The notes: a model not told the origin generated them from the sequence alone. Numbered from the stretch's first letter, positions 50,611 to 54,567 are shown. The stretch is 64,000 nt of DNA from Shigella phage Shf125875 (KM407600), one strand, 5' to 3'. Numbers and translations are program-made.

Positions 50611-51510
50611 TTATAAACCAGCTAACAGGTCATCAAGGTCGCCATCATCAGAAGACGAGGAACTCATGAAGTCATCTTCAGTTTTTGCAGAACTAAAGGC
50701 TTCCATGTCTTTATCAAAATCGTCAAGGTCAGAAGCAACTTTATCTGCAACAGAAGCTGCTGCGGCTGCTGCACCACCAAGAGCGGCAGTACCAAGAACC
50801 TTAGCGAAAGATTCATTTAATTTTTCGAAGGATTTGAACTGGTCTTTAGCCGTCAAAGTAGTAAGGTCTACCATCTGGTCATACAGTTCTTTCTGGAATG
50901 CTTCGTCATTAATACGAGGAATTTCAGATTGACCCAAGAATTTAGATTCGTCATAGTTGCTAAAACCAGAAACCTGCTTAGCTTTCAGAACGAAGTTAGC
51001 ACCTTCAAACGGACAAGTAACATCAACTGGAGTTTCACCCATTTCGGTATCAACTGCAATCATTGCATTGATTTTGTCCCAAATCTTTTTACCGAAACGA
51101 TATTTAAATACTTTACCTTCGTTATCTGGAGCTTGAGGGTCTTTAACAACCAGAATATTAGCCCAATAAGAAGTTTTACGTTTCAGTTGAGAATATTCAG
51201 TTTTGTTGGTATTGTACAGGTCATTTTTACTAATGTACTGACATACAGGACAAGAGTCGTAATCACCATGTGTAGAAGAGCAATTTTCAATATACCATTT
51301 ACCATTTTTCTTGAAACCGTGGTTAACAAGAATTGCAAATGGTAGTGCATCATCAGTTTTTGCTGGCAGGAAACGAATTACCGCTTGACCATTACCTGAT
51401 GCATCTAGCTTCAGCTTCCATTCGCCTTTATCTTCTGAAGAGAAACCTTTGTTACCGTTCAGTTTAGCCATTTGAGCAGCGAGGTCAGCAGTAGATTTAC
51501 GTTTAAACAT
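50611..51510 (-). CDS. 32: Single-stranded DNA-binding protein gp32
   Basis: 299 aa (T4 301 aa); acidic C-terminus [12 protein letters not shown]; operator repeats upstream. Confidence 0.95.
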
Positions 51511-51600
51511 TATATTTACCTTTATTTAGATTATTTAGATTATTTAGATTATTTAATTTATTTACAGTTGGTTGCTACGACACTTATACCTCGTAGCTGG
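51511..51600 (-). promoter_or_regulatory. Gene 32 translational operator: tandem AU-rich repeats plus adjacent hairpin/pseudoknot region
   Basis: Plus-strand TTATTTAGA repeated three times then TTATTTAAT, directly 5' of the gene 32 ATG on the minus strand; adjacent inverted repeat GCTACGA...TCGTAGC. Confidence 0.65.
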
Positions 51601-51644
51601 TATGATTTATTTATAAAGTAATTTTAACAAACAAGAAATAAAGC

Positions 51645-52298
51645 TTAATACTTACATGATTTGATTGTTTCTATGAACAATTTCTTAGCAGCATTTCCGT
51701 CGATTTGAAGTATTTTTCGATATGCCTTTAATTTGGTAGAATAATTTTGCCAGACTAAATTGTCGGTGAGTTCGTCGTGCTTATCTATAATATTCAAGAA
51801 TGAATCCAACAACAAGAAGGTTTCAAATGAAATTATATTGCTTTGTAGCAATTTAAATATGTAGCTCGACTGAACTTTATTATTATAATCAAATATCTCT
51901 TGAAGCGCACTAACTTCCACTTTCTTACTGAAATAGTAGATGTTACGTACATCTTCAGCAAACGTCTCCTTGGCTTGTTTGAGACGTCCAATATATTCCC
52001 TATAGAAAACTAATGCATCAGCGTCTGATATCTCACCAATCCATGCATCTTGGTTAGCAACTAAGTTACTGATGAATATCAAGGTGAGTTCCTTTAACTT
52101 ATATTTCTCTGCTAGTTTCTCAAAGAAATATTTATCTCGGCGTTTTTGATACGCATTATCCGAAACACGCATGCACCAGTTATATTTGATTACGTCATAC
52201 CGACCACCAAAATGGTTTTTGCACATCAAGTATAGTTTATATACCGATTTTCCATTAATATAACGTTCTCCATCAGGAGGCATGCGTATTTTAATCAT
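51645..52298 (-). CDS. 59: Helicase loader gp59
   Basis: 217 aa, same as T4; near-identical to T4 gp59 as recalled (MIKIRMPPDGERYINGKSVYKLYLM...). Confidence 0.95.
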   Translation of the reverse strand: MIKIRMPPDGERYINGKSVYKLYLMCKNHFGGRYDVIKYNWCMRVSDNAYQKRRDKYFFEKLAEKYKLKELTLIFISNLVANQDAWIGEISDADALVFYREYIGRLKQAKETFAEDVRNIYYFSKKVEVSALQEIFDYNNKVQSSYIFKLLQSNIISFETFLLLDSFLNIIDKHDELTDNLVWQNYSTKLKAYRKILQIDGNAAKKLFIETIKSCKY

Positions 52299-52974
52299 AT
52301 TTCCATCCGGACCATTTTGAAGATTTAAGTCTATATGTAACTAAAGACGCAGAAATATTAAAAACATTTGAAACTTCTTTACACGAGGCGTATTTTATAC
52401 CATCAATAATTATAGGTTTTTGTTTTTTAATAGTTCTTTCTTTAGAATGCGGCTTTGAATTTGCTATTCTAAGAGCTTCTTTGGTTGAATCGGGCATCGG
52501 CTTATTCGTTTTTCGCCCTTTTCGGACTTTGCTCAAGGCCAATTTGTGAGCTTCAGATAGTTTCTTACCCTTATTAGGTGACGATATTTTCTTTTCTAGT
52601 CTTGTTTTAGATACTTTAGCCTTAGTCTCTTCAGATCTAGGTTTACCTAATTTAGAAAGTGAAATAGCCCTTTTAGCTTCATCACTTTGTTTTTTACCAG
52701 GACCACCTTTACCACCGGGAACTAAGTTATAAGTATCATCTCGCAAAACAAAATCTTCGTTAACCAATTCTGCTTCTTTTTTATAGGCGTCCTTGTCATT
52801 ATCATATTCATAAAGAATTTCGGTATAAAAATTTTTTAGTCCATATTTAGCTTTGGCCGCTAATATAGCGCGGCCTGATCCAATATACCAATCTTTCTCT
52901 TTATGTTTTTTGTGTACGCCTATATAAATTTTACCATTTATTTTATTGGTAGTTTTATACACAACGTATTTCAT
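52291..52974 (-). CDS. Free-standing GIY-YIG homing endonuclease (Seg-like)
   Basis: 227 aa; N-terminal GIY-YIG module (VVYKTTNKINGKIYIGV); basic repeats like NUMOD3; C-terminal HTH-like segment; overlaps gp33 stop and gp59 start. Confidence 0.8.
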   Translation of the reverse strand: MKYVVYKTTNKINGKIYIGVHKKHKEKDWYIGSGRAILAAKAKYGLKNFYTEILYEYDNDKDAYKKEAELVNEDFVLRDDTYNLVPGGKGGPGKKQSDEAKRAISLSKLGKPRSEETKAKVSKTRLEKKISSPNKGKKLSEAHKLALSKVRKGRKTNKPMPDSTKEALRIANSKPHSKERTIKKQKPIIIDGIKYASCKEVSNVFNISASLVTYRLKSSKWSGWKYD

Positions 52975-53309
52975 AATAAGAAATCTAACGTATTAGTTTT
53001 TTCACCACGAGCAACTGATGGGCGAAGCATATTTTCGTCAATTGCTTCGCTTGTAATTTTTTCAACAATTCCTGTAGGAATAAATTTAGCAAATTGTGTT
53101 TCTGGAATAGAATTTTCTTCCAAGAAAGCAGTTGTTGCTTCTAAATAAGACATACCAAATTGCTCAACCATGGATTCGATAATGAATCCGTTTTCTTGAC
53201 GGTCAAGCAATTTAGCGATATCATCTTTATCATGTTTTACTGCTAATTCTTGTTCAGATAAACCGGTCTCATCAACCGGTTTAATATCACTTAGTGAAAA
53301 CTGTGTCAT
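52971..53309 (-). CDS. 33: Late transcription accessory protein gp33
   Basis: 112 aa, same as T4. Confidence 0.85.
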   Translation of the reverse strand: MTQFSLSDIKPVDETGLSEQELAVKHDKDDIAKLLDRQENGFIIESMVEQFGMSYLEATTAFLEENSIPETQFAKFIPTGIVEKITSEAIDENMLRPSVARGEKTNTLDFLL

Positions 53310-53556
53310 AAAGCTCGACTACCTCTTCGTTTTCAGCTTCAAATTGGTCACGAGCATCTTTATGATAAAGAGCTAACAAACGATTAAACATTTTTCCATC
53401 AACGCCAAGCTCTTCTTTAGCACGAGTACGAATGTCTTTAATCAGTTCATTATAACCAGAAATTTTAAGTTTGTTATCGGAAGCTTCCTTGACTAGTTTA
53501 GCCAGTTCTTCACCATGCACATCTTGATTAAATTCAACTGCTTCTTTCTTAGCCAT
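53287..53556 (-). CDS. dsbA: dsDNA-binding protein DsbA
   Basis: Start set at MAKKEAVEF giving 89 aa as in T4; strong similarity to T4 DsbA as recalled. Confidence 0.8.
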   Translation of the reverse strand: MAKKEAVEFNQDVHGEELAKLVKEASDNKLKISGYNELIKDIRTRAKEELGVDGKMFNRLLALYHKDARDQFEAENEEVVELYDTVFTK

Positions 53557-53563
53557 GTTTACC

Positions 53564-54481
53564 TCAGAATTCATTAATTACACTTGTTAATTTAGAAAGA
53601 CCCGATTTTACAAAGTATGAATAAATCTTGCCTTTAGGTTGTTGTTTATATGAGTTATAATACTCTATAATGGTTGAAGCAATATTATCAGGGATATAAT
53701 CAAAATCAATGAGAACCAAATTTTCTTGGTACCGTTTATATTCTTCTGCACTTAATAATACTTCAGCTTGAGAACGGTCATTAGCAATTGCTTCAATAAT
53801 CGTTGTTTTCATACTCGGAGTTCGTTCGCCTTCAACTCGAGTAAACCAGAAATCACCACGAACTCGAACAGACGCAACACCATCTTTACGGTCGCCTTTA
53901 AGAATTTTAGTCATGCAATCAATTTCGGCAGAACCATTCTTAATTTTAACCCATTTTTTCTGTGGTGGTGACCACTGTTTAACGTTAGGGTATTTGTGTA
54001 ATTGTGTAAAGTCACCATCTGATGCAACAATACATACCTTATGACCAGCTAATGACAAATATTTAGTTAATACACCGATATGGTCATCCGCTTCGTATTT
54101 GTCAATATCCATTACAACGTATGGCATATATTTCTTAATCTCATCAACAACTTGATGGAGTGCAGTAAAATATCCTTCCCAATCCCACTTTGAAGCTTCA
54201 CGATCGGTTTTACGATTTTTCTTATAATAGTAAGCAAAGTCACGACGCCAATATCCAGAAGTAGCGTTATCCATGCACAATACAAATTTTGTATAACCTT
54301 GCTTACGGAACATCACTACGTTTTTACGAATTGAATTCAAGACTACATGACGAACCATCGGAACAGTAATTTTATCACCATCTTCAAAGTTGTTTAATGC
54401 AGCTGCCAATGCAATGTTACTAAAGTCTGCAAGCGCAATACCTTCTTTGTAATCTTCATCCAACATCATTTCTAAATCCAT
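53564..54481 (-). CDS. rnh: RNase H (5'-3' exonuclease / flap endonuclease)
   Basis: 305 aa, same as T4 RNase H; position upstream of gene 34. Confidence 0.9.
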   Translation of the reverse strand: MDLEMMLDEDYKEGIALADFSNIALAAALNNFEDGDKITVPMVRHVVLNSIRKNVVMFRKQGYTKFVLCMDNATSGYWRRDFAYYYKKNRKTDREASKWDWEGYFTALHQVVDEIKKYMPYVVMDIDKYEADDHIGVLTKYLSLAGHKVCIVASDGDFTQLHKYPNVKQWSPPQKKWVKIKNGSAEIDCMTKILKGDRKDGVASVRVRGDFWFTRVEGERTPSMKTTIIEAIANDRSQAEVLLSAEEYKRYQENLVLIDFDYIPDNIASTIIEYYNSYKQQPKGKIYSYFVKSGLSKLTSVINEF

Positions 54482-54559: not shown

Positions 54560-54567
54560 TATAAATA
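54560..54567 (+). promoter_or_regulatory. T4-type late promoter for gene 34
   Basis: TATAAATAGTA about 35 nt upstream of gene 34. Confidence 0.6.

Follow-up and report, generated by a model that had tools for sequence, protein, structure and literature searches.

What is the reading frame that separates genes 33 and 59 in Shigella phage Shf125875, and does it behave as a mobile gene? In bacteriophage T4, these two genes are adjacent (the gene order is rnh-dsbA-33-59-segG-32-frd.3), as the original prediction for this DNA had stated. We analysed a stretch of 64,000 nucleotides from the phage (KM407600), referred to here as ‘the window’. At 99% identity, the region matches that of Shigella phage SHSML-52-1, a T4-like Mosigvirus. 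The prediction placed a frame of 227 amino acids (aa) between genes 33 and 59, and the ORF listing of the window and Pfam profiles bear out its coordinates and its neighbours (Table 1). The frame starts with ATG, and its 227 codons are followed by a stop. Upstream is gene 33, of 112 aa (Pfam Trans_coact, 3e-26), and downstream is gene 59, of 217 aa, which matches the Pfam models T4_Gp59_N and T4_Gp59_C. All three are read in the same direction, and the middle one overlaps both of the others. At its 5' end, its ATG and the TGA of gene 33 have bases in common within the tetranucleotide ATGA. At its 3' end, the ATG of gene 59 (52298-52296) occurs 5 nt ahead of its TAA, and this creates an 8-nt overlap, ATGATTAA. 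Both overlaps had been predicted, and both can be seen in the sequence.

Table 1. Positions of the endonuclease gene, its parts and its neighbours in the window
Feature	Position	Strand	Basis or remark
Homing endonuclease gene, SegD-like GIY-YIG (predicted)	52291..52974	-	ORF, profiles; relatives annotated ‘homing endonuclease’
GIY-YIG catalytic domain, residues 1-92	52699..52974	-	Invariant residues, fold match, identity to SegD
Basic linker, residues 93-185, with four NUMOD3-like helices	52420..52698	-	Pfam, AF2 model, composition
I-TevI-type helix-turn-helix DNA-binding domain, residues 186-227	52294..52419	-	Pfam, PDB 1I3J, Foldseek
ATGA overlap of gene 33 stop and endonuclease start	52971..52974	-	In empty relatives, ATGA couples gene 33 to gene 59
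ATGATTAA overlap: gene 59 start codon within the last codons and stop of the endonuclease gene	52291..52298	-	
676-bp segment missing from endonuclease-free relatives	52295..52970	.	Boundary ambiguous by repeated TATGA
Insert-linked polymorphisms; candidate recognition/immunity tract or co-conversion tract	52207..52239	-	Alignment of filled and empty genomes, 32-mer census
Gene 33 (late-transcription coactivator), upstream neighbour	52971..53309	-	
Gene 59 (helicase loader), downstream neighbour, likely target gene	51645..52298	-	

The same gene occurs at the same place in other Mosigviruses, in copies 95-99% identical to this one. GenBank lists it as a CDS in at least 20 records, with labels that are automatic only: the SHSML-52-1 copy (YP_009289047) is a ‘homing endonuclease’, and others are a ‘Seg-like homing endonuclease’ or a ‘group I intron endonuclease’. 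In a literature search, we found no published characterisation or name for the Mosigvirus copies, no paper on an endonuclease at 33/59, and no biochemical or genetic test of the protein or of its close homologs. The notion that the frame is a chance product of AT-rich DNA and not a gene has a vanishingly small probability. It is refuted by 552 homologs at E <= 1e-10 in a search of 5.8 billion proteins, by the CDS annotations, and by the family models, fold match and purifying selection described below.

By profile and by predicted fold, the protein is a full-length enzyme of the I-TevI/Seg type: a GIY-YIG domain, a linker with four NUMOD3-like helices and a C-terminal helix-turn-helix (HTH). 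Residues 4-226 match the NCBIfam model for the I-TevI family, TIGR01453 (‘group I intron endonuclease’), with 73 bits where the curated cutoff is 56, and PHROG 314, ‘homing endonuclease’, is matched at 2e-55. The original prediction would have fallen had profile searches led to a non-nuclease family; profile and fold searches alike lead to a nuclease family. The predicted N-terminal GIY-YIG module is supported by TIGR01453, by its fold and by 54% identity to T4 SegD; the Pfam GIY-YIG model itself stays below threshold, and Pfam SegE_GIY-YIG just under its cutoff. An AlphaFold2 (AF2) model built on 46 homologs has a mean pLDDT of 86.9. Its top Foldseek match in the PDB is 1MK0, the I-TevI catalytic domain (probability 1.0; TM 0.67 on target), its second-best is 1I3J, the I-TevI DNA-binding domain, and I-HmuI, an enzyme that uses NUMOD3-type helices, comes next. 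Tyr6 of the GIY motif, Tyr17 and Gly19 of the YIG motif, Glu67 and Asn83 are invariant in the 46 homologs, so that the fold match is accompanied by the conserved Tyr, Tyr-x-Gly, catalytic Glu and Asn of GIY-YIG homing endonucleases. Three subfamily-specific residues, His21, Tyr30 and Gly32, are likewise invariant. Position 35, which opens the first helix of the AF2 model, is Arg here, Lys in most homologs and Val in SegD. The profile alignment to 1MK0 reaches an E of only 0.1 and has a gap opposite the catalytic Arg27 of I-TevI, and the counterpart of this Arg is therefore ambiguous.

The C-terminal HTH, too, turned out as predicted. It matches Pfam I-TevI_DNA-bd above cutoff (1.7e-11, residues 183-226) and PDB 1I3J at 4e-4, and it aligns directly, residue by residue, with the HTH of I-TevI in 1I3J (ISASLVTYRLKSSKW vs ISSGLVTYRVKSDKW). 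The domain thus appears to be a separate DNA-binding module, joined to the catalytic domain by the linker. Of the NUMOD3-like repeats that had also been proposed, the repeats are there and the formal Pfam assignment is not. The linker is basic, with 30 Lys or Arg in 96 residues, and carries four repeats of the type S-x-E-x-K, each on one of four predicted helices; Pfam NUMOD3 scores 18.8 bits, just under its cutoff of 20.4. The linker has a single Cys, and an I-TevI-type zinc finger is therefore absent. Ten intact Mosigvirus copies give a pS of 0.100, a pN of 0.0115 and a pN/pS of 0.115. Taken module by module, the ratio stays low (catalytic domain, 0.078; linker, 0.097; HTH, 0.19), and purifying selection thus acts on all three.

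The closest T4 paralog is SegD, and the identity of 54% just mentioned applies to the N-terminal catalytic domains. The two proteins have a common signature, YIG-x-H ... D-x-Y-x-GSG ... KYG ... EA-LV ... TYN, and NUMOD3-like repeats in both linkers. They differ in their C-terminal halves (~30% identity, with a 28-residue gap), at position 35 as already described, and in locus, which is 23/24 for SegD and 33/59 here. The segD gene, moreover, is oriented opposite to its flanking genes 23 and 24 (T4 mutant-clone record MZ375356), whereas the 33/59 gene is co-oriented with its neighbours and overlaps them. The differences in locus and in the C-terminal half rule out orthology to SegD; the sequence comparison instead identifies the 33/59 protein as a paralog within the SegD-like subfamily. 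With I-TevI it has the same three-part design in common: GIY-YIG domain, flexible DNA-tracking linker and C-terminal HTH. The analogy suggests that its binding and cutting sites should be some tens of base pairs apart. Unlike I-TevI, it lacks the zinc finger, has a longer linker with the four NUMOD3-like helices, and shows no clear counterpart of the R27-x3-H31 helix. I-TevI is also intron-encoded (in T4 td), whereas the 33/59 gene lies between two genes.

T4 SegG resembles the 33/59 gene in its surroundings: it, too, is a free-standing GIY-YIG cassette with no promoter of its own, and it belongs to the same operon of replication genes, where it directly adjoins the opposite side of gene 59. 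The original prediction had placed segG beyond gene 32. This was mistaken; on the T4 map segG is found between genes 59 and 32 (PMC535899), and it is listed at 32/59 with its target in gene 32 (PMC2988022, Table 1). It is polymorphic for presence or absence among T-even phages, and its product cleaves gene 32 of T2 (PMC535899; PMC2988022). The 33/59 gene differs from it in insertion site and in probable target gene. A tblastn search of the T4 region from td to gene 34, which includes segG, gives no similarity to SegG at E <= 1e-3, and with the locus at 33/59 this rules out orthology; by these comparisons, the two appear unrelated beyond a common fold. The 59/32 spacer of the window is only 134 bp, so segG is absent. 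No endonuclease adjoins gene 32 on either side in the window, in keeping with the earlier remark that the 32/frd.3 region has none, and tblastn finds no paralog of the 33/59 endonuclease anywhere in it. The position of segG on one side of gene 59 and of the 33/59 gene on the other adds slightly to the interest of the case.

Is the gene a stable part of this operon, or does it come and go? Matches to 51400-53600 occur in 170 phage records, ~153 of them at >=90% identity. In 27 of the 170, the whole segment is present (‘filled’); the remainder match in two pieces that skip the ORF (‘empty’). Among the close records (>=90% identity), 27 are filled and ~126 empty, such that about one in six carries the insert. 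The gap is the identical 676 bp in all eight empty genomes that were aligned, and in empty genomes genes 33 and 59 themselves overlap in ATGA. This is a presence/absence polymorphism at a fixed site among collinear relatives. It occurs even within species: SSE1 is filled and JS09 empty, both within the ICTV species Mosigvirus JS09, and WFbE185 is filled and mar005P1 empty, again within one ICTV species. One copy of the 27, in AV116, is frameshifted (+1). Among Mosigviruses, the insert has diverged by 2-4%, similar to its flanks, and therefore there has been no recent sweep. A search of 51400-53700 returned no Rfam match at E <= 1, and with the gene lying between two genes, this rules out a group I intron context. 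The gene is free-standing, between conserved genes and outside any intron. The junction comparison had been named beforehand as a test of the proposal of a distinct Seg-type insertion at 33/59, and the clear polymorphism found there upholds it; T4 and most close relatives have nothing at this site.

The gene is faithful to this site well beyond the Mosigviruses. Its homologs include a tight subfamily at 46-58% identity, and all eight members whose context was examined occupy the 33/59 junction and overlap gene 33 in the same ATGA. They comprise Serratia phage CHI14 (Winklervirus), in which the gene is called ‘segD’ and is 51% identical to the ORF, and seven metagenomic T4-like contigs. In three of the contigs, a second ORF occurs between genes 59 and 32. 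One of these is plainly SegG-like, and gene 59 can thus be bracketed by two endonuclease genes, the 33/59 element and a SegG-side element in the same phage. Across the nine lineages, the divergence of the endonuclease is uncoupled from that of gp59 and of gp33 (rho -0.11 and -0.17, from pairs that are non-independent). This is the pattern expected if the element moves between lineages. In all nine, the start of gene 59 lies inside the endonuclease ORF.

If the endonuclease acts at this junction, its target might leave a trace in the flanking genes. In a 5-kb alignment of 11 filled and 8 empty genomes, five of 561 variable sites track the insert, and all five fall within 52207-52239, that is, nt +60 to +92 of gene 59. 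The insert-associated tract is thus ~35 bp at the 5' end of this gene. An Fst-like index rises to 0.4-0.63 in 52027-52427 and is ~0 over the rest of the 5 kb; beyond 150 bp, the flanks show no correlation with the insert. The sole perfectly associated site in the 19 genomes is 52239 (nt +60), the third base of Tyr20 and 56 bp from the insertion point, which is TAT in filled genomes and TAC in empty ones. The others change amino acids: 52215/52217 give Asn28 vs Gln, and 52207/52208 give Gly31 vs Asn. Gene 59 sites +27, +45, +48 and +54, which are synonymous and nearer to the insert, are polymorphic within the filled genomes, with alleles common to empty ones. Since these nearer sites vary, closeness to the insert does not by itself account for the fixed T at +60.

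A census of exact 32-mers over the whole phage collection extends the association. The T allele with AAAAACC occurs in 42 records (the 27 filled and 15 others) and with AAACAAC in one, which is not filled; the C allele occurs with AAAAACC in 14 records and with AAACAAC in 92, with none of the filled 27 in either group. In total, filled records are 27 T and 0 C, and the other 122 are 16 T and 106 C (Fisher's test, 7e-19, which treats records as independent and ignores shared ancestry). Inspection of the locus in four of the 15 other T-type AAAAACC records showed an exact empty site in each. The T allele is not diagnostic of the insert, since 16 endonuclease-free records carry it, as does T4, which has no insert; Tyr20 is TAT also in nine of nine filled lineages. 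T-type empty genomes are found on both sub-haplotypes of the filled genomes: F2, AV111 and G2285 match the window, and mobillu matches phi25-307. Such genomes may have lost the insert, may be recombinants or may carry resistant alleles. A linked tract of this kind would be expected if the endonuclease cuts or binds C-type genomes within the first ~100 bp of gene 59. T-type DNA would then be either immune or always co-converted. The prediction had suggested a target in the 33/59 region, and a candidate target there fits the position of the sole insert-linked polymorphisms, at nt +60 to +92 of gene 59. This short haplotype is also compatible with preferential inheritance accompanied by co-conversion. 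By eye, no I-TevI-like CNNNG cleavage motif was seen next to the junction.

How would such a gene be expressed? The late promoter TATAAATA does not occur on the coding strand between 54600 and 51615 (gene 34 to the 59/32 spacer). Matches to sigma-70-like promoters are at background (18, vs 13.2 +/- 3.8 in shuffled sequence), as are terminator scans. The gene therefore appears to be a promoterless cassette within the rnh-dsbA-33-59 unit. Promoterless, overlapping, coupled cassettes are documented for T4 segC, segF, segG and mobE, several other mob genes of T4 are promoterless cassettes too, and start/stop overlaps have been taken as a sign of translational coupling that keeps endonuclease levels low (PMC2988022). 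Coupling of this endonuclease with its neighbours, as the original prediction supposed, is plausible by analogy, given the ATGA overlap, the lack of a dedicated promoter and the similar arrangement of segC, segF and mobE. From the order of the overlaps, we infer a two-step chain, from gene 33 to the endonuclease and from there to gene 59. Most deletions of the cassette would probably disturb gene 59 expression, and this would favour its retention. In I-TevI, an RNA hairpin hides the start codon. A stem of CGUGGUGA with UUAUUAUG is predicted over the start codon here, in filled and empty genomes alike, with folding energies that are not unusual (z -0.3 and -1.7), and we dropped a start-codon-hiding hairpin as a candidate.

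In our judgement, the gene probably encodes an active SegD-like homing endonuclease that engages in classical intronless homing, with either the 33/59 junction or the 5' end of gene 59 as its target. The cassette would be transcribed as part of the operon. Ribosomes that finish gene 33 would re-initiate on the endonuclease by way of ATGA, and those that finish the endonuclease would re-initiate on gene 59 by way of the 8-nt overlap. When the phage infects a cell together with an endonuclease-free relative, the HTH and the four NUMOD3-like helices would bind conserved sequence at the junction or within the first ~100 bp of gene 59, and the tethered GIY-YIG domain would make a double-strand break nearby. 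During recombination-dependent repair, the recipient would then acquire the 676-bp cassette and, with it, a short piece of gene 59 from the donor. The carrier might be protected by the split site, by the linked gene 59 variants (TAT at Tyr20, Asn28, Gly31), or by both. Several points count against this reading. A 2018 paper in Virology reportedly found that SegD, the closest characterised relative by sequence, does not drive homing of its own gene. SegD is listed with activity ‘ND’ and target unknown (PMC2988022). Further points are the ambiguous counterpart of Arg27, the 16 endonuclease-free records with the T allele, the shared ancestry that Fisher's test ignores, and the frameshift in AV116.

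The same protein might be a functional site-specific nuclease that no longer homes here. The gene would in that case be inherited vertically, be shuffled by ordinary recombination and be lost occasionally by precise deletion between the TATGA repeats. Its retention might reflect a benefit to the phage, for instance if it cuts competitors at other loci (marker exclusion at a distance); alternatively, gene 59 translation now starts inside the ORF, and most deletions would damage it. The listing of SegD, the closest T4 relative, with an unknown target, the similar divergence of insert and flanks, and the empty genomes on both filled-type sub-haplotypes, which fit repeated loss, all lend themselves to such an account. 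So does the embedding of the gene 59 start in every lineage, retention by embedded host signals being a described theme for T4 endonuclease genes (PMC2988022). We nevertheless consider it unlikely. Filled and empty genomes coexist within species, and flanks a short distance away are uncorrelated with the insert; no filled genome has the majority C at +60, though nearer sites recombine freely; and the endonuclease has diverged independently of its neighbours across lineages. These observations are more easily explained by ongoing homing. It is less likely by far that the protein is a catalytically dead remnant, which persists only as a DNA-binding protein or as a spacer carrying the translation signals of gene 59. 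The gap opposite Arg27, the Pfam GIY-YIG models below threshold and the frameshifted AV116 copy could be taken in this sense, but the catalytic domain is the most constrained of the three modules, its Tyr, Tyr-x-Gly, Glu and Asn are invariant, its fold matches that of I-TevI, and the full-length NCBIfam model is above cutoff.

With active homing as the preferred reading, what does the locus add? It is a real but ordinary selfish gene, an unnamed SegD-like member of the well-known Seg class, and it reveals no new mechanism and no new protein family. If active, it contributes an eighth Seg-type insertion site to the T-even repertoire, and gene 59 would be bracketed by independent selfish elements in different phages, a situation that bears on how marker exclusion shapes the replication-gene cluster. 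The population sample is unusually clean, with ~150 near-identical genomes, 27 of them filled, and a linked tract of only ~35 bp. It points to the probable position of the target, and the main added value is this sharply localised prediction of a target or immunity tract. For the engineering and typing of therapeutic Mosigviruses, the gene explains a recurrent 0.7-kb indel.

A bolder interpretation is doubtful, if attractive. The 5' end of gene 59 might be a landing pad common to two unrelated lineages, one SegD-like and upstream, the other SegG and downstream. Self-immunity might be achieved not by disruption of the site, but by as little as one synonymous change (Tyr20 TAC to TAT), and the element might have captured the start context of gene 59 (ATGATTAAA, MIK), such that gene 59 would be translated only through the selfish gene. 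If so, a homing endonuclease would gate the expression of a replisome gene, and the boundary of recombination between co-infecting phages would be very short (<100 bp). We considered and rejected the idea that each genome had copied its own gene 59 start to the beginning of the endonuclease gene: the mean match within the same genome, 6.6 nt, barely exceeds the 5.6 nt of the cross-genome control. A family-level resemblance of the two starts remains, with ATGATTAAA in both, and in three of the lineages (L030, L032 and L033) the 10 leading nucleotides are common to the endonuclease gene and gene 59.

In the other T4-like lineages that carry them (Serratia phage CHI14 and seven metagenomic contigs; L004, L027–L033), homologs of the 33/59 endonuclease gene, the GIY-YIG ORF that lies between genes 33 and 59, typically begin with ATGATTAAA (MIK), and gene 59 has this as its consensus start too. 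In the window, the endonuclease start reads ATGA-AATACG and that of gene 59 reads ATGATTAAAATACG. The resemblance could be a relic of an original insertion a few codons inside gene 59 or, alternatively, could reflect convergence toward one coupling context; matches between the two starts within one genome hardly exceed those of cross-genome controls. In phages SF, F31 and JS09 (L016, L018 and L019), gene 59 is annotated from the internal Met6 (639 nt), and this leaves an apparent 11-nt gap 3' of gene 33. A different 33/59 junction in these phages is ruled out by their DNA, which contains a ATGATTAAA gene 59 start overlapping gene 33; since this start is identical to that of the other phages, the gap is an annotation inconsistency.

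Three metagenomic T4-like contigs with the 33/59 endonuclease carry an extra ORF of 211–221 aa between genes 59 and 32, the position of segG in T4. Since the one in L028 is clearly SegG-like, gene 59 can be flanked by two unrelated homing endonuclease genes, one on each side. Escherichia phage AV116 has a further homing endonuclease annotated beside or inside thymidylate synthase (td), the gene at which I-TevI, likewise, is placed in T4. Mosigviruses have a second polymorphic site for an endonuclease in the td region, ~3 kb from the 33/59 locus.

AV116's copy of the 33/59 endonuclease gene is 1 nt longer and shifts frame past approximately residue 102; GenBank annotates just a 417-nt 'hypothetical protein'. 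Either this copy is in decay, or it contains a homopolymer sequencing error. A more remote homolog (39% identity), in the 161-kb metagenomic T4-like contig L034, is flanked by a gp33-like gene and gp32, and lies on the strand opposite to both. The exact T4 late-promoter consensus, TATAAATA, occurs 18 times in the window (7.4 expected), mainly on the + strand at 4.6–26 kb, a cluster that presumably marks the late structural genes.

Coordinates of the features discussed (window positions unless a sequence is named)
Feature	Location	Strand	Remark
Endonuclease gene start	52945-52974		
Gene 59 start	52269-52298		
TATAAATA	51608-51615	-	directly upstream of gene 32
TATAAATA	54560-54567	+	directly upstream of gene 34
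Second 59/32 ORF	L027:3846-4511		
Second 59/32 ORF	L028:3830-4468		clearly SegG-like
Second 59/32 ORF	L031:2731-3366		
td-associated endonuclease site, AV116	L015:1-327		
td/I-TevI site, T4	L003:1-432		
Frameshifted copy, AV116	L015:4075-4760		
Remote homolog	L034:1501-2160
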